This document shows positions 5,498 to 35,847 of a stretch of DNA of 64,000 bases, piece by piece; the first letter of the stretch is position 1; every line of letters starts with the position of its first letter. The notes under the pieces are model-generated. The model was given only the letters and a program-made list of their open reading frames with translations. It did no database searches and was not told the DNA's origin. Both the position numbers and the translations under genes were made by a program. The stretch spans positions 1,344,001-1,408,000 of the forward strand of contig CAVUZH010000003.1 in assembly GCA_963745835.1 (NCBI GenBank). The letters are read 5' to 3'. The stretch is from an uncultured delta proteobacterium (lineage in GTDB: Bacteria; Desulfobacterota; Binatia; UBA9968).

Positions 5498-6364
5498 TTA
5501 GGGCCGGAGCAGAAACGGTACGACGATCTCCGCCAATTCTTCAGGCCTCTCGTGCGGGATGTGATGGCCGGCTCCCTCGATCGGCACAATCTCGGCTTTA
5601 GGAAAAAGCTTCACGCGCGGACCGCGCACCGACTTCATAAAACCGCTCTCCGTGCCATAAACAAAGAAGATGGGACACTGAATGCGCCGGATAAACGCTT
5701 CGATTTGTCCTTCGGACAAAGCGGTAGTCGTCCGATAACGTAGAATCGGATCATACTTCCAACGGTATCTACCGCCCTTGAAATTGGTTCCGTGCCGGGC
5801 CATATGCAACGCAGCATTATCGGGAATAAGAGGGTAAGTTTTCTGCAGCGCCTTTGCGGCAGCCTCCAAAGATTCGTGTGGAAACGGGATCTCTACGTAG
5901 TCTCGACCATTGAGTCTCTCGGCAAAAATCTCGGGCACTTCTTCATCGGCGCGCGCAAACGGACCCAGCGACTCGAGAAGCACCATGCGCTTGACCTTGT
6001 CAGGGAAGGCTCCGGCGTACAGCAGGCACATACTGCCGCCGAGTGAATGACCGATAATGGTTAGCGGCTCTTTACCGAGATGGCGCAGGAGACCGGCCAA
6101 GTCCGTCAGAAAATCCTCATGTTGATAGCCACGGCTTGTGCTCGGCCATTCGCTATCACCATGACCACGCAAGTCGATGGCCACTGCGTGTTTAATCGGT
6201 AACCCGCGCGCGATCATCGCCGCAATAAAATCATCCCAGCTTCGCCCTTGATCGCGCACGCCATGAACAAAGACGAAAGTCTCTTGGTTGGGATCGCCCC
6301 ACTCCCAATAGTGAAGTTTCAACCCATCATGATTGAAGTAATGGTCCCGGAGTTCTAAATTCAT
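5498..6364 (-). CDS. Alpha/beta-fold hydrolase
   Basis: FVHG, DLRGHGDS, GHSLGG nucleophile elbow, AGHHIPHE. Confidence 0.92.
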   Translation of the reverse strand: MNLELRDHYFNHDGLKLHYWEWGDPNQETFVFVHGVRDQGRSWDDFIAAMIARGLPIKHAVAIDLRGHGDSEWPSTSRGYQHEDFLTDLAGLLRHLGKEPLTIIGHSLGGSMCLLYAGAFPDKVKRMVLLESLGPFARADEEVPEIFAERLNGRDYVEIPFPHESLEAAAKALQKTYPLIPDNAALHMARHGTNFKGGRYRWKYDPILRYRTTTALSEGQIEAFIRRIQCPIFFVYGTESGFMKSVRGPRVKLFPKAEIVPIEGAGHHIPHERPEELAEIVVPFLLRP

Positions 6365-27524: not shown

Positions 27525-28193
27525 ATGGAACGTCTCGAAGACTACCAGAACTGCACTATCCTATACGTTGATGACGAGGAAAAATCGCTCGTCAACTTCA
27601 ATCGGGTCTTTCGCAAGAAGTTTAAGATATTGAGCGCCGCCAACGCGGCAGAAGGTTATCGACTGCTTGAAGAATATCGAGACGACATCGCGCTTCTGAT
27701 GAGTGATCAGCGAATGCCCGGAGAAAAAGGCGTCGAGTTTTTAAAACGCGCTCGTGAAGTGCATCCGAACGCAGTCCGTATTCTGACTACGGCGTACTCG
27801 GATTTCGATGTGGCGATTGAGGCTATGAATTCCGGCGCCGTTTCCAAATTGGTTACCAAGCCCTGGGATATACCTCAACTGGAGATGATCATTAAAGAAG
27901 CCTGTGATTTCTTTACGGCGCAACGCGAGGGCGAGTTTCTGCCTGGTACGGACCTCTCTGCAGCACAACTCAAACCGACGAGTCACGAGCGGGGGACTGA
28001 GATAGGTGAGCTACGAACGCTGGAGCAAGTGGCTCGCTACTTAAATGTGGACAAGTTTACTGTCTACCGTCTGATAACCCAGAAAAAAATACCGGCCTTC
28101 AAAGTAGGCAATCAGTGGCGTTTCAAACAGGAGATGGTAGATGCCTGGCTGGTGGCAAAGGCAAATATCAAAAAGGCCAAATCAGATTACTAA
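27525..28193 (+). CDS. Response regulator receiver fused to excisionase-type (HTH_17) DNA-binding domain
   Basis: ILYVDDE, SDQRMPG, TKPW receiver; C-terminal LRTLEQVARYLNVDKFTVYRLITQKKIPAFKVGNQWRF. Confidence 0.88.
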   Translation: MERLEDYQNCTILYVDDEEKSLVNFNRVFRKKFKILSAANAAEGYRLLEEYRDDIALLMSDQRMPGEKGVEFLKRAREVHPNAVRILTTAYSDFDVAIEAMNSGAVSKLVTKPWDIPQLEMIIKEACDFFTAQREGEFLPGTDLSAAQLKPTSHERGTEIGELRTLEQVARYLNVDKFTVYRLITQKKIPAFKVGNQWRFKQEMVDAWLVAKANIKKAKSDY

Positions 28194-28600
28194 GCATCGA
28201 GTTCGCTCGTAAGTCCCTGTGCCAGTTAATCCGCGGCGCTGTTCCTGCCCAGCAGTTTCAATACACCAGGGCGGCGATTCACAATCTTCTTCCCCTTGAC
28301 AATCTCGTTTGGGTCATTCTCCCCTTCCGCTCGTGCTATTGGGCATTGTTATCGTGGGCCGATGTTCGGTTGTAAATTAGTTCGTGTGTCATCGCCAAAT
28401 CCTCTTAGCGCCGTAACCGCACCTTCAAAATTATAGAAGCGCAGCCGGTGCTGAAGCTTCCGGCGCGCCCATGCGATTCACACTCAGGATAGGAGACACG
28501 CAAGTACACGGCTAGACATAAAATGACACTTTTGTTCATCGCTGGTCGCCCAGCATAATATTCTGGGCCCATTAACGCGTCTCTTTTCGGGATTTTTCCT

Positions 28601-28616
28601 TGGTATACTGCTTGCT
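28601..28616 (+). promoter_or_regulatory. Sigma54-type -24/-12 promoter upstream of the pilB-like gene
   Basis: TGGTAT-ACTGC-TTGCT matches TGGCAC-N5-TTGCW spacing. Confidence 0.6.
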
Positions 28617-28636
28617 CACGTCGGCTCCTTAAGTCC

Positions 28637-30766
28637 ATGTCTCAACAATTTGCCGAAAAAATTGGCGAGCTGCTCACTCAGGAAGGCCTACTCACTGCGG
28701 AACAACTTGCCAAAAGTATTGCCGTTCAGAAACAGCAAGATTCCGCAGAGCCGATCGGCAAAGTGTGCGTTTCGCTCGGGTTTGTCGCGCCCACCGATTT
28801 AGAAAAATTATTGGTGAAACATCGCCGGCGAATTCCGCTCGGCGAACTTTTGGTTCATCTCGGACTGCTCACGCCGAGCCAAGTACAAAACGCTCTCGAT
28901 CAGCAGAAAAAATTGAACCCGCATAAAAAGCTCGGCGCGGTACTCATTGAGAAGGGATACATCGATGAGGCTGCGCTGATTCGCGCCCTTTACGAACAGT
29001 CTCAGGCCGGCAACTGTCAGAAATCTAAGCAAGGTAAGTTTGATGCGCTGGTGGCGACGCGGCGTTTGAGCCAGCGGGATCTAGACTTGGCGCTCCGGGA
29101 AGCGCAGATTCAGCAGCGTCCCGTCGAAATTCTTTTGATGGAACGCTACAAGCTCAAGAAACAAGAACTGGGTGCTGCTCTCAGCGTATTCTATGGCTGT
29201 CCATTCAAAGAGTACGATGAAAAACAGCCGCCGGCCTGGGATTCCATACGCGGCCTCAATTTGAATTATCTGAAGGCCGCTTCTTGGATTCCTTTGCAGG
29301 TCAGCGAACGCTCCGTGGAGGTGCTTATCGATGACCCCACAGCTTATGAAAAAATCCAGGATATCAAGCGTCTGTTTTTAGGAAAACAGATCACGTTTGC
29401 CGTCGGCTTGCGCGATGACATCCTGAGATATTTCAGCACCGCCAAGGCCAATCTCGAGAAAAGCCACTCTCATGAATCGATCACGACCATACTAGGGCAG
29501 CTCGATGTCGCCGCACAGGACGAGGCAGACGACGATAGTTTGAACGACCCCGCCATCAATGAAAATCACAGCGTCATCGTCAGGCTGGTGAACCAAATCA
29601 TTACCGACGCCTGCAAAAAGAGGGTTTCGGATATTCATATCGAGCCTTACGGAAGCCAAAACGACACCGAGGTCCGCTTCCGTGTTGATGGACATTGCTC
29701 CAATTATCTGCGGGTTCCGGCGGTGTATCGCAGACCCCTCGTATCCCGACTAAAGATTATGGCCGGCCTCGATATCGCGGAACGCCGCAAACCGCAAGAT
29801 GGCAAGATCAAGTTCCGCCTGCCCGATCGCGAAATCGAACTACGCGTGGCGACTATTCCAACGGCAGGCATCGGCAATGAAGATATAGTTCTTCGGGTGC
29901 TCGCGGCCGGAGAGCCGATCCCGATAAACGAATTACGCATGACGTCGCGCAATTTACACAAATTTCGCGAGCTGTTGGCAAAACCTTACGGATTGATTTT
30001 GTGTGTCGGCCCAACCGGATCAGGAAAAACAACCACTCTTCATTCCGCCCTTAACGTGATCAATACGGCGGAGCGCAAAATCTGGACGGCAGAAGATCCG
30101 GTCGAAATAACCCAGCGCGGGCTGCGCCAGGTGCAGGTCAACGCCAAAATAGGATTTAATTTCGCTGCCGCGATGCGCTCGTTTCTCCGCGCCGATCCGG
30201 ATGTCATCATGGTGGGAGAGATTCGTGATCGGGAGACTGCCGAAATCGGTATTGAAGCTTCGCTTACCGGACATCTGGTATTGAGCACCCTTCATACCAA
30301 CAGCGCCGTCGAAACCATCACCCGACTCTTAGAAATGGGTATGGATCCGTTTAATTTTGCCGATGCATTGTTAGGAGTCTTGGCGCAACGGTTGGCGCGG
30401 ACGATCTGCGGCGGCTGTAAAGAACCCTATCACCCCGCAAAAGAAGAACTTGATGGATTAGCGTATGGGTATGGCGAAGCGGCTTTTGCTCAATTGGAAA
30501 TTCCCCAAAAAGAGAATCTCGTCCTATACCGCGGCAAAGGCTGTGCTGATTGTAATCAGAGCGGCTACAAAGGCCGGATCGGTTTGCACGAGCTCCTGGT
30601 TGTCAGTGACGAGATCAAGCGGCTGATTCACGCGCGTGCAACCGTAGCTGAGCTTTGGCAAGTCGCGGTTGCGCAAGGAATGACGACCTTGGTCCAGGAT
30701 GGCGTGCAAAAAGTTTTGGCGGGTTGGACCGACTATGGGCAAGTAAAAGCCGCCGCGACACGATAG
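28637..30766 (+). CDS. pilB: Type IV pilus/T2SS assembly ATPase (PilB/GspE family) with N-terminal MshEN-like c-di-GMP-binding motifs
   Basis: Walker A GPTGSGKT, AEDPVE, RADPDVIMVGEIRD, TGHLVLSTLH, CGGC...CADC Zn motif; N-terminal KIGELL..EGLL....L......Q and PLGELLVHLGLL....V...LDQQ. Confidence 0.9.
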   Translation: MSQQFAEKIGELLTQEGLLTAEQLAKSIAVQKQQDSAEPIGKVCVSLGFVAPTDLEKLLVKHRRRIPLGELLVHLGLLTPSQVQNALDQQKKLNPHKKLGAVLIEKGYIDEAALIRALYEQSQAGNCQKSKQGKFDALVATRRLSQRDLDLALREAQIQQRPVEILLMERYKLKKQELGAALSVFYGCPFKEYDEKQPPAWDSIRGLNLNYLKAASWIPLQVSERSVEVLIDDPTAYEKIQDIKRLFLGKQITFAVGLRDDILRYFSTAKANLEKSHSHESITTILGQLDVAAQDEADDDSLNDPAINENHSVIVRLVNQIITDACKKRVSDIHIEPYGSQNDTEVRFRVDGHCSNYLRVPAVYRRPLVSRLKIMAGLDIAERRKPQDGKIKFRLPDREIELRVATIPTAGIGNEDIVLRVLAAGEPIPINELRMTSRNLHKFRELLAKPYGLILCVGPTGSGKTTTLHSALNVINTAERKIWTAEDPVEITQRGLRQVQVNAKIGFNFAAAMRSFLRADPDVIMVGEIRDRETAEIGIEASLTGHLVLSTLHTNSAVETITRLLEMGMDPFNFADALLGVLAQRLARTICGGCKEPYHPAKEELDGLAYGYGEAAFAQLEIPQKENLVLYRGKGCADCNQSGYKGRIGLHELLVVSDEIKRLIHARATVAELWQVAVAQGMTTLVQDGVQKVLAGWTDYGQVKAAATR

Positions 30767-31122
30767 TGCACCACCACGCTGTTCAGATGTGCTCCTGCGA
30801 CTGATTTATCACTTACGTTAGGAATACTTCATGCGCCGTCCACGCCTGCCACGGCCAAGGGCTTATTATCATTGTATGGTCCCTGCAATGCGTTTCAGAT
30901 AAACGTGACACTTACTTAACCATCACTGACTCCTCTCGAGAGCCGAATCGGCTATCTCGTTCCAGAGATAATATGGCCGCGGTCGCCGTCCTCCTCGCCA
31001 AAATTATCCGCGACTCACTGTTAAGCTGAGTTGGTTTTCATTTACTCTTTCTACCGTAGGTCGCAATCCGATACTGTCCAGCTGATCTCGAACGCCACGG
31101 TTTGTCCTCTTTCCAATAACAA

Positions 31123-31157
31123 CGACAGCCGCTCCCCTTTGCGGGAGGCGGCTGTCG
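31123..31157 (-). terminator. Intrinsic terminator after orphan PxKF C-terminus B
   Basis: cgacagccgctccc/gggaggcggctgtcg hairpin followed on the minus strand by ttgttatt. Confidence 0.65.
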
Positions 31158-31180
31158 GCGTCGTTAGGCCGGGAGCCTGG

Positions 31181-31426
31181 TTACTTCTTGATGGAGATCC
31201 AGACGGTATGCCTGCTGCCATCCTGCAGAGTGGCGATCAGTAGCCATGTGCCGTCCTTGAATCCAGACTTGGTGCTGAGGTTGAAGTGCCAATCCGTACC
31301 GGTCAACCGGAATTCGTTGCCGGTCGTGGCCGCGTCAGTCGGCGTGGCGTCGATCGGCTTGTCTGAGTCAGTGGCACTGCTGTATTTGATTGCCTGCAGC
31401 GTGTGGATACCGGTGATTAATGCTGC
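31181..31426 (-). pseudogene. Orphan start-less PxKF-domain C-terminus (B), paralogous to the adhesin C-terminus
   Basis: Manual translation AALITGIHTLQAIKYSSATDSDKPIDATPTDAATTGNEFRLTGTDWHFNLSTKSGFKDGTWLLIATLQDGSRHTVWISIKK* aligns nearly colinearly with the last ~80 aa of 32023-35673; no in-frame ATG/GTG/TTG back to the stop at 31496. Confidence 0.88.
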
Positions 31427-31747
31427 ACGGCCTGGCCGGGTTAAGCTGCTGCGAACGGTAGAGCGAAAGACTTTCAGGATCTGACTACGGCTATGTCACT
31501 CGAAGCTTCAAAGAGAAAGATTGGTTGGACTAGCTCGAGGAGACGCAGCGAAAATTAGCAACCGGTCAAAAGACAAGACCTGATTATCACTGACCCAGAG
31601 CGATGTTCAGCGCTATCTGGAAACCGACCGAGGTATAGGGCATGGGACCGGCGACTTCAACGCCCGCCGAAAAGCGCTGACAAGGCGCCCGCAGCAGCAG
31701 AAGTAATGCAATCAAGTTCGTCAGCTGAAATTATGAGTGGATTCGGC

Positions 31748-31788
31748 AAAAGGACGAAGGGCGAAGAAGAGCTTCCTCTCCACCTTCG
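31748..31788 (-). terminator. Degenerate terminator after orphan PxKF C-terminus A
   Basis: cgaagg...ccttcg imperfect hairpin with a tcctttt tail on the minus strand. Confidence 0.45.
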
Positions 31789-31809
31789 GCTAAAACGCCA
31801 CGTCAGCGA

Positions 31810-31887
31810 CTATTTCTTGAACTGGAAATTGGCGTAGTAAGTCTTGCCGTCAATCAACTGGACGGCCAACTGTCTACACGTGTTTGC
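31810..31887 (-). pseudogene. Orphan PxKF-type C-terminal remnant (A)
   Basis: ANTCRQLAVQLIDGKTYYANFQFKK* matches, from memory, the typical end of PxKF domains (TCRQL.V.L.DG..H.ANF.FK). Confidence 0.7.
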
Positions 31888-31986
31888 GGCTGCAATAGTC
31901 TCACTGTTCTCGTTCAAACGCGGTCCTCACGAAACTGCAAACTAGAAACCTTAACCGCGCCACCTGGAAAAGAGGTTCAGGTTTTG

Positions 31987-32013
31987 CCGGGGAGCCCTGA
32001 GTGGGCTCCCCGG
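31987..32013 (-). terminator. Perfect 11-bp hairpin right after the adhesin stop codon
   Basis: ccggggagccc-tgagt-gggctccccgg; no U-tract on the minus strand. Confidence 0.6.
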
Positions 32014-32022
32014 GTCTGAATC

Positions 32023-35000
32023 CTACTTCTTAAGTGCGATCCAGGCATAGTGCGTGGAGCCGTCTTCCAGCGTGGCTACAATTTTCCAGATGCCCTGGCT
32101 GAAACCGGACTTCGTGCTCATGTTGAAGTGCCATTGACCGTCGGTAAGCCGGAATTGATTGCCGGTTGTAGCCGAATCGGTCGCCGACACTACCATGGGA
32201 TCCCCCAACGAGTATGTGTCGCTGCTGTATTTAAACGCCTGAATAGTATGGACGCCGGTTAGCCATGGGGTTCCGCCGCCACCATAAGCTATAAACTTCA
32301 CGGGAAGCGTACTGCCCAGTTTGACAGTCCGGATCGGGTGGGCAAAGTCTCCGCCGGTCGCATCATCGGCCCCGCCAATTGGAGACAAGAATCCGTCAAA
32401 GCCCAAAGGATTGATGGTGTACGAGCCATTCACATTCGTCACCTCGAAATTGGCGAGACCCGTGCCGCTGACTACCGGCTCAATCGTGGTGGTTCCAAAG
32501 CCCGGACCCACCGATGCCGGATTGTTGGCGCATGTCAGGTCACCCTTGTAAACGCCTGTCACCAAGCAGGCACTCGGAGACTTCGTCGTGCCGTCATAGG
32601 TCGTCGTGCCGCCGCCCGCTGTCGCCGTTACTGGCGCCTTGTTGATGGTGTACGAGCCATTCACATTCGTCACCTCGAAATTGGCGAGACCCGTGCCGCT
32701 GACTACCGGCTCAATCGTGGTGGTTCCAAAGCCCGGACCCACCGATGCCGGATTGTTGGCGCATGTCAGGTCACCCTTGTAAACGCCTGTCACCAAGCAG
32801 GCACTCGGAGACTTCGTCGTGCCGTCATAGGTCGTCGTGCCGCCGCCCGCTGTCGCCGTTACTGGCGCCTTGTTGATGGTGTACGAGCCATTCACATTCG
32901 TCACCTCGAAATTGGCGAGACCCGTGCCGCTGACTACCGGCTCAATCGTGGTGGTTCCAAAGCCCGGACCCACCGATGCCGGATTGTTGGCGCATGTCAG
33001 GTCACCCTTGTAAACGCCTGTCACCAAGCAGGCACTCGGAGACTTCGTCGTGCCGTCATAGGTCGTCGTGCCGCCGCCCGCTGTCGCCGTTACTGGCGCC
33101 TTGTTGATGGTGTACGAGCCATTCACATTCGTCACCTCGAAATTGGCGAGACCCGTGCCGCTGACTACCGGCTCAATCGTGGTGGTTCCAAAGCCCGGAC
33201 CCACCGATGCCGGATTGTTGGCGCATGTCAGGTCACCCTTGTAAACGCCTGTCACCAAGCAGGCACTCGGAGACTTCGTCGTGCCGTCATAGGTCGTCGT
33301 GCCGCCGCCCGCTGTCGCCGTTACTGGCGCCTTGTTGATGGTGTACGAGCCATTCACATTCGTCACCTCGAAATTGGCGAGACCCGTGCCGCTGACTACC
33401 GGCTCAATCGTGGTGGTTCCAAAGCCCGGACCCACCGATGCCGGATTGTTGGCGCATGTCAGGTCACCCTTGTAAACGCCTGTCACCAAGCAGGCACTCG
33501 GAGACTTCGTCGTGCCGTCATAGGTCGTCGTGCCGCCGCCCGCTGTCGCCGTTACTGGCGCCTTGTTGATGGTGTACGAGCCATTCACATTCGTCACCTC
33601 GAAATTGGCGAGACCCGTGCCGCTGACTACCGGCTCAATCGTGGTGGTTCCAAAGCCCGGACCCACCGATGCCGGATTGTTGGCGCATGTCAGGTCACCC
33701 TTGTAAACGCCTGTCACCAAGCAGGCACTCGGAGACTTCGTCGTGCCGTCATAGGTCGTCGTGCCGCCGCCCGCTGTCGCCGTTACTGGCGCCTTGGCAA
33801 TAGTCACACTCTGGTCCGCTGAGGCGGCCAGGAAGTTCGTTGTTTCCGCGCCACTGGCCCTCACCACGCATGTACCGGCCCCGCTCGAGCTGAAGATTCC
33901 CGTGTTGGCATTTACCACTGCGCATGGGCCACTCACGTGGCTGTAGGTAAGTGTGGAGCTATCTGTGTTCGTCGTCGATGCGCTCACCGTGAAGTTTCCG
34001 CCGCCAAACGTCGGCGTCGGCGCTGTCCCAAACGTGATCACCGGCGGCGCCTTGGCGGCGGCGTTATAGGTGAAGCAGGGCGAAGCGGTGCATGTGACCG
34101 GGCTCCCGGCACCCTCCCGGACAGTAACAGTCACCGGTCCCGCTACATGGGCAGGAGTTACTGCGGTTAGGTTCCCGCCCACCTTTGCGACTGAAGTAGC
34201 GGAGACGCCGCCAAACAAGACGGTCCATGGGCCATTGCCGATTCCGCTGACAGAGATGGTCACTGACGTGCCGCCGGTTGTCGGACCTGAGTTTGGTGAA
34301 ACGCTAGTAACCGACAACGCATCCTTAAACGCCGTCTGCGCGGTGAATCCGGAAGTCTGGCCTATTGCGGTCAGGGTAAAAATTCTGTCGAGGTCGATTT
34401 GCTGAGGGGCAAACTCAGCGACCACGAAGTTACCCTGCTGATTTGCGACCGCGGAGAGAAAAATATCCGGATACTCTTCAGGGAACTCATGAAAATAGAT
34501 ATATACCTGCTCATTCGCTTGAAAGCCGCTGCCAGTGATTGTGACGATCTGTCCGGGCGCGTAGTCGGTTTTGTCCGTGGTAACGCTCGCTTTAGAGCTA
34601 CTCACCAGCTTGGCGGAATTCAACACCTGGCCCCCGCTATTCACGCCGCCCGCCACTAATGCTTGATTGCGCTCCGGCAATTCTGTAATCGACTGGTCGG
34701 CGCGGTCGAGCAGCGACAATTGTTCAGCTGTCAGAATTCCTTGAAGTAGCGGATCCTGAGAAATTGACGGCGAGAAAAGAGCCGCGCGGCTCTGGGTGCT
34801 CAGCGTCGCGCCGAGCAGATCTGCGTTCGGCGGCAAGAGCGCTTTCGCAATAAAAACCCCATCCCTCGGATCGAAGACTTCCATCGATAACTCAGCGTCG
34901 CCCCCGATAATCTGTACCTTGCCATCCGGCAACAGTTTCAATGTTGCGAAGGCGCGAGCCGTCTGCATATTTGTGGGCGGTAGATAAAAAGTCTGCGAAG

Positions 35001-35673
35001 CGGGATCGAAAACCTCCGCTGTGTTGAGCATCGCCTCTTGCGCATTGACACCACCCACGATCATGACCTGACCGTTTTGTAGCAGGATTGCACTATGGAA
35101 TTTGCGAGGAGTTTTTAAAATCCCCGTTATGAGTGAAAAGCTTTGCGTGACAGGATCGTAGATTTCCGCACTTCCAAAGAGGTCCCCGCCAACGACAAGT
35201 ATTCTATCATTCGCTAAGATCGTGGCGGTATGGCCGCTACGCGCGCGCATCATGGCGGGACCGGCTATGAAAGAAGTAGTAACAGGGTTGTAGAATTCTG
35301 TGGATTGTAATGAGCCGGTCTGATCGCGACCGCCGATCACGAGTACTCTGCCGTCAGAAAGTCTGGTGGCAGAGTGATCGGTTCGTGGTGTTATCAACGC
35401 AGCCACGAGAGCAGAGACCTGCGAGACAGGATCAAAACTCTCCGCCTGGCTCACGATTCCGTTTTGATTATCGCCGCCGACGATCAAAACTTTTCCGTTC
35501 TCCAGCAGAGTAGCAGTATGGCTGCGCCGTTCGACATTCAAGTGACCGGTGCCAAGGATCTGCGCGACAGCCCACGTTGAGTACAACAGAGTCGCCAAAA
35601 GCACACCGAACAAAGTTAACCGCTTCAAAGTTCTGCGGTAATACGTATTGGACAACACTGCATCACTGTTCAT
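32023..35673 (-). CDS. Large secreted adhesin-like protein: Kelch beta-propeller, Ig-like, IPT/TIG, 6x MBG-like repeat, PxKF C-terminal domain
   Basis: Signal peptide; repeated R..HTATLL.NGKVLIVGG Kelch motifs; VTTDKTDYAPG; VTSVSPNSGPTTGGTSVTI (IPT); 77-aa repeats; FDGFLSPI...GSTLPVKF; GGAGG RBS before ATG 35673. Confidence 0.9.
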   Translation of the reverse strand: MNSDAVLSNTYYRRTLKRLTLFGVLLATLLYSTWAVAQILGTGHLNVERRSHTATLLENGKVLIVGGDNQNGIVSQAESFDPVSQVSALVAALITPRTDHSATRLSDGRVLVIGGRDQTGSLQSTEFYNPVTTSFIAGPAMMRARSGHTATILANDRILVVGGDLFGSAEIYDPVTQSFSLITGILKTPRKFHSAILLQNGQVMIVGGVNAQEAMLNTAEVFDPASQTFYLPPTNMQTARAFATLKLLPDGKVQIIGGDAELSMEVFDPRDGVFIAKALLPPNADLLGATLSTQSRAALFSPSISQDPLLQGILTAEQLSLLDRADQSITELPERNQALVAGGVNSGGQVLNSAKLVSSSKASVTTDKTDYAPGQIVTITGSGFQANEQVYIYFHEFPEEYPDIFLSAVANQQGNFVVAEFAPQQIDLDRIFTLTAIGQTSGFTAQTAFKDALSVTSVSPNSGPTTGGTSVTISVSGIGNGPWTVLFGGVSATSVAKVGGNLTAVTPAHVAGPVTVTVREGAGSPVTCTASPCFTYNAAAKAPPVITFGTAPTPTFGGGNFTVSASTTNTDSSTLTYSHVSGPCAVVNANTGIFSSSGAGTCVVRASGAETTNFLAASADQSVTIAKAPVTATAGGGTTTYDGTTKSPSACLVTGVYKGDLTCANNPASVGPGFGTTTIEPVVSGTGLANFEVTNVNGSYTINKAPVTATAGGGTTTYDGTTKSPSACLVTGVYKGDLTCANNPASVGPGFGTTTIEPVVSGTGLANFEVTNVNGSYTINKAPVTATAGGGTTTYDGTTKSPSACLVTGVYKGDLTCANNPASVGPGFGTTTIEPVVSGTGLANFEVTNVNGSYTINKAPVTATAGGGTTTYDGTTKSPSACLVTGVYKGDLTCANNPASVGPGFGTTTIEPVVSGTGLANFEVTNVNGSYTINKAPVTATAGGGTTTYDGTTKSPSACLVTGVYKGDLTCANNPASVGPGFGTTTIEPVVSGTGLANFEVTNVNGSYTINKAPVTATAGGGTTTYDGTTKSPSACLVTGVYKGDLTCANNPASVGPGFGTTTIEPVVSGTGLANFEVTNVNGSYTINPLGFDGFLSPIGGADDATGGDFAHPIRTVKLGSTLPVKFIAYGGGGTPWLTGVHTIQAFKYSSDTYSLGDPMVVSATDSATTGNQFRLTDGQWHFNMSTKSGFSQGIWKIVATLEDGSTHYAWIALKK
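32411..33796 (-). repeat. Six apparently identical 231-bp in-frame tandem repeats
   Basis: ttgatggtgtacgagcc recurs at 32411, 32642, 32873, 33104, 33335, 33566; no differences seen by eye. Confidence 0.96.
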
Positions 35674-35727
35674 CCGATCCTCCAAATAGTCCTTTGCCTA
35701 CAACGCCGCTCCGTACCCGTTTTTGGC

Positions 35728-35763
35728 AAAAAAAAACCGGCACAGAATTTCTGTTGCCGGTTT
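35728..35763 (-). terminator. Leader terminator/attenuator overlapping the 3' end of the riboswitch aptamer
   Basis: AAACCGGCAACAG-AAATT-CTGTGCCGG-T9, 55 nt upstream of the adhesin ATG. Confidence 0.88.
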
Positions 35764-35823
35764 CACCATTCGCTCCCTGACGCCCGTGGTGACCACGTTG
35801 GGCAATCAGTTCATCGCGTCAAC
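35753..35823 (-). ncRNA. c-di-GMP-II-type riboswitch aptamer
   Basis: GUUG-ACGC-GA-UGAA-CUGAUUGCCC-AACGU-GGUCACC-AC-GGGCGUCAG-GGAGCGAAUGGUGAAACCGG-CAAC: P1 GUUG/CAAC, K-turn UGAA/GGA, P3 CUGA..GCCC/GGGC.UCAG, pseudoknot UCACCA/UGGUGA. Confidence 0.82.
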
Positions 35824-35847
35824 TTTCTTATGATTCTGCGGCGGTAG

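Follow-up and report, generated by a model that had tools for sequence, protein, structure and literature searches.

How does a large surface-protein gene come to be followed, on its own strand, by two pieces of the kind of domain with which it ends? The question is raised by a locus in an uncultured delta proteobacterium (GTDB lineage Bacteria; Desulfobacterota; Binatia; UBA9968), which we analyzed within a stretch of 64,000 nucleotides (nt) of contig CAVUZH010000003.1 (assembly GCA_963745835.1, positions 1,344,001 to 1,408,000, forward strand), hereafter the window. The genome that holds the window (G000; 7.28 Mb) is a metagenome-type assembly with an estimated contamination of 9.3%. Here, a 1220-residue open reading frame (ORF) at window positions 32023–35685, minus strand, encodes the large surface protein, which ends in a PxKF domain. 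Downstream of it lie two further PxKF ends, fragments A and B, which are probably non-functional relics of earlier 3′ ends of this locus, left behind when the tail of the gene was replaced. The argument turns on the following parts.

34322–35685, minus strand: conserved head of the gene, with signal peptide, Kelch propeller and immunoglobulin (Ig)-like domain; about 460 residues, the last reading ...TAFKD
32395–34321, minus strand: putative replacement stalk, with TIG domain, Ig-like segment and 77-residue repeats
32026–32394, minus strand: live PxKF tip (tip C), a whole domain matching NF038114; stop codon at 32023–32025
31810–31902, minus strand: fragment A, the last 25–30 residues of a PxKF tip of a different type, plus stop; matches NF038114
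31181–31430, minus strand: fragment B, the C-terminal 81 residues (5 of 8 strands) of what appears to be the former tip, plus stop; NF038114 profile positions 47–112

The tip and both fragments match NF038114, the NCBIfam model of the "rightmost" PxKF domain, which has a curated cut-off of 35 bits. Residues 1098–1219 of the live protein cover profile positions 2–113 at 46.5 bits (52.7 bits in a scan of the genome), above the cut-off. The frame of B (31181–31426), which reads AALITGIHTLQAIKYSS...HTVWISIKK*, matches positions 47–112 (31.0 bits, E 2.5e-7; 29.6 bits in the genome scan), and A, which at 31810–31887 reads ANTCRQLAVQLIDGKTYYANFQFKK*, matches positions 89–113 (27.2 bits, E 3.8e-6), or 84–113 in the genome scan (23.4 bits, E 3.5e-4). 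As partial domains, both stay below the cut-off. Scanning the entire genome in six frames with NF038114 returned three matches, all at this locus; each ends at profile position 112–113, and a stop then follows. The PxKF motif itself is missing from A and B, both of which start downstream of it. The coordinates and peptides given for A and B in a first-pass annotation of this DNA were correct, and its expectation that both would match a PxKF model was borne out, at scores below the cut-off.

That annotation also looked to tblastn with the C-terminal end of the protein, which succeeded for one fragment: the last 140 residues of the gene recover B from the genome at 59.5% identity over 79 residues (E 1.9e-25) and miss A, and elsewhere in the genome nothing scores better than E 0.27 except the gene's own repeats. 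Pfam gave no match to B and noise only for A. Our own hidden Markov model of 64 tips recovers B (E 6e-30), misses A (E 0.73) and does not list an orphan PxKF end in genome G021; since it leans towards B- and C-type tips, it was left out of the counts. A is a true PxKF end and can be aligned with the termini of a G319 tip and of the G021 orphan. Both fragments had been described as lacking a start codon. There is none at the front of either domain piece; each frame does hold an internal TTG, which in B opens a 41-residue ORF (31181–31306) and in A is the Leu codon of RLNEN. On a structural model of the tip, B covers about residues 51–131 (five strands, without the PxKF strand) and A about residues 107–131 (two strands), and neither is predicted to be able to fold on its own. 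In annotation, B and A should be labeled gene remnants, not genes.

The origin of B emerges from comparison with orthologs, for which we used two genomes of the same genus, G005 (locus L012) and G003, and one of another genus, G094 (L039). By blastn, window 36011–34322 aligns with L012 168–1861 at 83%, window 31426–31063 with L012 3090–3452 at 76%, and window 30802–28491 with L012 3709–6028 at 86%. The last segment is a neighboring gene that converges on ours and anchors the synteny.

28637–30766, plus strand: convergent neighbor, a T2SSE-type ATPase with an MshEN domain (Pfam T2SSE 416.7 bits, MshEN 37.4 bits)

Between the head and B segments, the sole DNA match is one of 79 nt, at 77%, between the live tip (32186–32110) and the G005 tip, and the stalk has no DNA homology to the G005 ortholog. 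The G005 gene encodes 987 residues, with 83% amino acid identity in the head (residues 1–460). Its terminus, ...TDWHFNLSTK..TWLLSATLVDGSQHTVWISIKK (...AALISGIHTLKAIKYSNSTDSDPPIDATPTDAATTGNQFRLTSTDWHFNLSTKGNGFTAGTWLLSATLVDGSQHTVWISIKK), is of the same sequence type as B and is joined directly to the gene, with a homologous hairpin behind it. G005 has one gene, not two, beside the same ATPase, and the identity of the heads equals that of the flanks. The G094 gene is collinear with that of G005, having head, stalk and B-type tip, and since G094 belongs to another genus, we take the B-type tail to be the older state and the arrangement in the window to be derived. The G094 ortholog (L039, G094:C14, 5589–5709) is split into two overlapping frames of 969 and 360 residues, through a frameshift or a sequencing error. 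On these alignments, B appears to be what was once the end of this very gene. Where G005 has the old tail of about 1.2 kb, the window has about 2.9 kb (34321–31427), comprising the new stalk, new tip, terminator, fragment A and scraps of unrelated genes.

Where does the new DNA begin and end? On the left, homology ends right behind the TAFKD codons, at window 34322. For both G000/G005 and G000/G003, blastn homology ends at nt 1364 of the gene, and for G005/G003 it ends at the equivalent place, so that the tails of these three species, all of one genus, differ from that base onward; in G003 the gene reaches the end of its contig and is incomplete. Within 34200–34400, at this head/tail boundary, GC content rises abruptly, from about 0.54 (head) to about 0.61 (stalk); it is 60–62% in the stalk versus 51–54% in the flanks. 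Pfam places the Kelch repeats at residues ~50–270 and the TIG domain at 458–526, and Tandem Repeats Finder finds the stalk repeats at 32411–33796, with a period of 231 bp (77 residues, MBG-like), 6.0 copies and 100% matches. The boundary recurs in the family, where the head is present in 21 of 81 genomes and the matches stop at residue 455–460 in full-length cases. Head-bearing frames span 969 to 2609 residues where complete, and most of their C termini, judged by eye, are unlike PxKF. At the other end, the window is again homologous to G005 from about 31428–31430, where homology to a short element, S2, ends; the right-hand join would be an illegitimate one, inside the old PxKF domain.

These observations suggest a course of events. 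The gene product would be a secreted protein with a conserved Kelch head of about 460 residues and an exchangeable tail, composed of an Ig-like/MBG-type repeat stalk and a PxKF beta-sandwich. In the G000 lineage, other DNA, about 2.9 kb long, would have taken the place of the old tail. We infer homologous recombination at the left end of this exchange, which would lie within the conserved head or at its edge. The right end, near window 31428, would be the illegitimate join within the old PxKF domain. This join would have stranded the final 81 codons of the old tip, together with its stop and terminator, as B, and the incoming or intermediate DNA would have brought its own stalk, PxKF tip and terminator. 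A, S2 and a scrap of a cupin gene that lies between them may be leftovers of an earlier replacement, or of co-imported DNA, later eroded by deletions. The first-pass annotation had offered "a record of successive 3′ replacements" as one of two readings. For B, this has proved apt, as G005 and G094 have a B-type tip joined to the orthologous gene; A, which sits amid scraps of other genes, could plausibly have the same origin.

If B was displaced, how long ago did this happen? The ratio of non-synonymous to synonymous substitution rates (dN/dS) between B and the G005 tip is 0.135, with a dS of 0.76. When changes are polarized with G094 as outgroup, those on the branch to B number 7 (synonymous) and 3 (non-synonymous), versus 7 and 5, respectively, on the branch to G005. 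About 77% non-synonymous changes would be expected under neutrality (binomial P 0.002 against neutrality on the B branch). From these counts, B seems to have been under purifying selection for most of its separate history and displays no excess decay, which would make its displacement recent relative to the split of the G000 and G005 species.

As for the source of the new tail, a locus labeled Verrucomicrobiae has the nearest tips, at 69% identity. The tip alone reaches up to 81% in proteins whose front parts are of quite different kinds (Kelch, peptidase S8, HYR, MBG), and a locus labeled Pyrinomonadaceae has 45% identity over 563 residues of repeats and tip. The sole near-identical protein among 5.8 billion is P0002, from a sister strain, which has the same tail and agrees at 872 of 885 residues over its best alignment. 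Since this 99%-identical protein is, judged by length, one repeat longer, repeat number varies between strains.

The spacers between the gene and A (135 nt) and between A and B (about 380 nt) consist of hairpins and scraps, and neither holds an ORF with a family match. Two scraps could be traced to sequences elsewhere.

31631–31698, plus strand: scrap of a cupin-like gene, its 3′ end, with the last ~13 codons (...GMGPATSTPAEKR*) and trailer
31426–31540, no strand assigned: S2, a short conserved element that ends at the junction with B

The cupin scrap is 86–95% identical over 41–68 nt to the ends of intact genes of about 165 residues in other genera of the family; G000 itself lacks an intact copy of comparable similarity, the best being a 33% paralog. 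A and the cupin scrap converge across a weak hairpin and resemble a former gene pair. In five genomes with intact cupin genes, a search for a donor-like A-type tip convergent with the cupin gene gave 0 matches to NF038114, and in G020 a PxKF start is found on a different contig only. S2 recurs at 75–92% identity over 32–113 nt in 11 other loci (for example, L050 984–1092, L052 1501–1564, L056 1501–1569 and L057 1434–1502). In TopoVI-A genes it overlaps with the final codons (...KEKDWLD*); other copies are found behind ORFs that by eye are nitroreductase-like and at further intergenic sites. It may be a terminator module, a small mobile element or a gene-end relic. The family set of 90 genomes includes the unpublished G012, with one S2 match, on which no claim depends. 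The stretch between A and B is, by these matches, apparently a patchwork of scraps.

Hairpins follow the stop of the gene and those of both fragments.

31987–32013, minus strand: hairpin after the live stop, with an 11-bp G+C-rich stem and no U run directly behind it
31755–31788, minus strand: imperfect hairpin after A, between A and the convergent cupin scrap
31118–31162, minus strand: putative ancestral terminator hairpin after B, with a homologous hairpin in G005

All three had been noted in the first-pass annotation, and they differ in strength. Those behind the gene (−35.6 kcal/mol, z −4.2) and behind B (−37.3 kcal/mol, z −5.6) are strong, with 0 of 200 shuffles as good in either case, and the G005 homologue of the latter retains its stem despite changes on both sides. 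The hairpin behind A (−24.4 kcal/mol, z −1.7, 9 of 200 shuffles as good) is present and constitutes weak evidence. A scan for promoter and terminator consensus sequences found no excess of sites over shuffled sequence and listed none of the three minus-strand hairpins. In Rfam, 30700–32200 matched no known RNA, the terminator-like P34 alone appearing below threshold (15.9 bits versus 44). Transcription would be expected to stop at the hairpin behind the live stop, in which case A and B should be silent. One metatranscriptome contig covers 32229–32420, inside the live tip, and does not cover A or B; it proves neither expression nor silence.

Several points weigh against a replacement of this kind. 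No donor for tip C and the spacer downstream of it was found among the 90 family genomes. The direction of change is read from only two genomes with a B-type tail, a comparison that covers B alone. For the putative left crossover, sliding identity over the head reveals no clear donor tract. The intact frame and low dN/dS of B would fit continued selection on B equally well, the silence of A and B is an expectation, and the high GC content of the stalk may stem from its Gly/Ala/Thr-rich repeats, not from a foreign origin.

Could the fragments instead be the decayed ends of other genes? The first-pass annotation had itself named decayed paralogs, without chimeric alleles, as the alternative to displaced tips. 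A, and perhaps all of 31427–32022, might be the eroded tail of a separate full-length gene or of an inserted island, so that A was never the end of this gene. The scraps of unrelated genes between A and B would fit such a history, as would the convergence of A with the cupin scrap across their shared hairpin. Tandem full-length PxKF genes do exist (G549:C428, G546:C356 and G554:C7; L117, L114 and L126), and stranded PxKF ends recur as accidents behind unrelated genes: in G515 (L160, G515:C347, 4485–4667, plus strand) a PxKF end in an 89-residue frame lies directly behind a 494-residue ORF, an amidohydrolase by eye, and in G021 (L010, G021:C164, 9211–9372, minus strand) half a PxKF domain, profile 60–113, lies in frame right behind the stop of an unrelated 1043-residue surface-protein gene. 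B, however, contradicts a paralog origin, as the head in the window is orthologous to that of G005 at the identity of the flanks and G005 has its single gene beside the same neighbor, and the decay of a paralog takes more events than a replacement. B thus withstands the comparison of orthologous loci; A may still be a decayed paralog, as nothing separates the two histories for this fragment. Overall, we regard the decay of a separate gene or island as unlikely. That assembly or binning joined unrelated contig ends, which the nature and estimated contamination of the assembly might suggest, has a negligible chance of being correct. The arrangement is not an artefact of G000, because a contig of 1121 nt from an independent study (X6) spans 31320–32420 with 1 difference; contig pieces from a third study bridge the B junction, and the flanks are syntenic with G005.

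Another possibility is that A and B form a working system of silent cassettes, kept as an archive and recombining with the expressed tip, as in pilS or the Rhs/CDI (contact-dependent inhibition) orphans. The best point in its favor is the B frame, intact over 81 codons and with its low dN/dS; moreover, both orphans directly follow the expressed gene in the same orientation, and the family combines a fixed head with highly variable tails. Nevertheless, B is without 3 of the 8 strands, the PxKF strand among them, and A retains only 2. The longest run identical to the live tip is 12 nt in B and 7 nt in A. RecA-dependent exchange usually needs about 20–30 nt of identity. There is no conserved core ahead of the orphans. 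No alternative tip joints occur in the contigs of three DNA runs (from three studies) and one RNA run, contigs being a form of data that drops rare variants. Nor are stacked ends found among the other relatives or in the rest of the phylum: 7 of 41 genomes of relatives (G000 included) match NF038114, with stacked matches in G000 alone, and 4 of 401 genomes in the phylum carry the PxKF domain, the other three having no more than one match each. A wider survey, covering genomes reached via 50 of the 60 loci found with a three-row tip alignment, yielded 86 matches in 50 other genomes (two of the 86 are in the unpublished G510, on which no claim depends). Most end at profile position 110–113 and a minority at 88–108; three are whole domains in frames of 120–135 residues, and just one, the G515 piece (profile 51–113), is a C-terminal-only piece in a short frame. 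Orphan PxKF ends are rare among PxKF genomes, and an active cassette switch is not supported; we consider it very improbable.

Displacement and silent copies are known from other systems, with which this locus shares some features. The pilE/pilS, vlsE and msp2 systems have many cassettes, conserved flanking blocks of high identity and variants that are visible within a population. They resemble our locus in that partial, promoter-less copies lie near an expressed surface-protein gene; in contrast, our fragments are only two, are unlike each other, have no run of more than 12 nt identical to the live tip and show no variant joints in contigs. Orphan mafB-CT cassettes are start-less 3′ pieces similar to those of cdiA-CT. 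The latter, orphan cdiA-CT/cdiI modules, are described as start-less 3′ pieces behind a full-length gene for a secreted or surface protein (Poole et al., 2011; PMC3150448). A and B share this position behind a full-length surface-protein gene; unlike A and B, the orphans of both toxin systems pair with immunity genes and retain re-usable homology.

The closest parallel is with rhs loci, in which, according to the parts of Jackson et al. (2009; PMC2935791) that deal with C-terminal displacement, the conserved core and the variable tip evolve separately. There, a newcomer without homology takes the place of an ancestral tip that relatives share; the old tip persists further downstream in the same orientation, silent and without a start, and such tips can stack (PMC2935791). 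In the same way as these parts describe, an ancestral tip that is still attached in G005 and G094 would here have been displaced downstream of a newer one. Unlike rhs, this locus has neither a toxin tip nor an immunity gene; its displaced pieces are without a core fragment and are cut inside the tip domain, and what lies upstream of B is the unrelated S2. Whereas the rhs account, in the same parts, includes insertion of a circle by a single crossover, about 1.2 kb of old tail has been deleted here, which points to replacement. Whereas in rhs the tip alone is exchanged, here the whole tail, stalk and tip, of about 760 residues, would have been. The first-pass annotation had proposed a tip-swapping system similar to Rhs/CDI/MafB. 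This holds as an evolutionary analogy; as a mechanism it finds no toxin, immunity gene, conserved core or alternative joint, and the orphans are cut inside the fold.

What is the PxKF tip itself? Among NF038114 proteins, the live tip is a full member and the last domain, and A and B are only the last 25–30 and 66 profile positions, respectively. The motif appears in the live tip as LPVKF, with P39, V40 and K41 conserved across an alignment of 58 tips (A6). The model built on this alignment is an 8-strand beta-sandwich (predicted local distance difference test, pLDDT, 89.6; predicted template modeling score, pTM, 0.84). The closest structure is a macroglobulin (MG) domain of Salmonella alpha-2-macroglobulin (VIA Z 10.2, root-mean-square deviation 3.0 over 99 residues), and Foldseek matches are Ig domains (E about 3e-4, TM at most 0.44). 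The predicted fold is a plain Ig/macroglobulin-like sandwich, and its likeness to macroglobulin, filamin and Ig domains would be merely generic. Pfam and NCBIfam scans found no toxin family on the gene or fragments, and a full-text literature search found no paper on the PxKF domain. The domain occurs in loci labeled as many phyla, Gram-positives and candidate phyla radiation (CPR) bacteria among them, a spread that speaks against a sorting signal specific to diderms.

The leader of the gene carries a candidate receptor for cyclic di-GMP (c-di-GMP).

35746–35830, minus strand: predicted c-di-GMP-II riboswitch aptamer in the gene leader, positions 1–84 of 84 of Rfam model RF01786

At 50.3 bits the window aptamer falls slightly under the gathering score of 53.5, with a full-length match and an E value of 4.2e-10; two families of the same clan also give matches that overlap it. 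The leaders of orthologs pass: L011 (aptamer at 6001–6085; 67.9 bits) and L039 (8436–8520; 55.0 bits) for RF01786, and L012 (350–434; 45.4 bits) and L015 (2489–2573; 45.6 bits) for RF03169, which belongs to the same riboswitch clan and has a gathering score of 40. These leaders belong to G019, G094, G005 and G003. The leader bin at 35713–35811 is 96–98% identical in three species, versus about 60–90% in adjoining bins. At window 27525–30766, plus strand, a response regulator with a helix-turn-helix domain and the MshEN ATPase adjoin the gene; MshEN is a c-di-GMP-binding module. Because of the predicted riboswitch leader, these neighbors, the signal peptide and the Ig-like repeats, the product would fit a c-di-GMP-controlled surface or matrix protein. 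The label "adhesin" in the first-pass annotation is itself inferred. Riboswitches of the c-di-GMP-I-GGC type (75.3 and 69.9 bits) also occur near Kelch-head members in G047 and G074 (L041 1577–1659, minus strand; L042 3341–3419, plus strand), upstream of different ORFs.

It is conceivable, if quite doubtful, that Kelch-head/variable-tail proteins form a polymorphic non-toxin surface system under c-di-GMP riboswitch control, in which whole tails are regularly exchanged between lineages at a fixed boundary by Rhs-like displacement and stranded tips are kept temporarily as re-usable material. If so, selection would be for surface diversity, as in evasion of phages or predators or in kin or substrate recognition, not for toxin/immunity diversity. 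Displacement with stacked orphan tips is known from polymorphic toxins, where it is explained by toxin/immunity diversity, and here the same signature appears without a toxin or immunity gene. The locus provides a dated example in which an old end, a newer one and their junctions can all be seen, and its fragments read as fossils of tail swapping and not as parts of a working switch. Since it involves a non-toxin gene with a predicted riboswitch leader, a conserved Kelch head and three tails that start from the same base in one genus, it suggests that head-anchored tail exchange is a general diversification route for large bacterial surface proteins.

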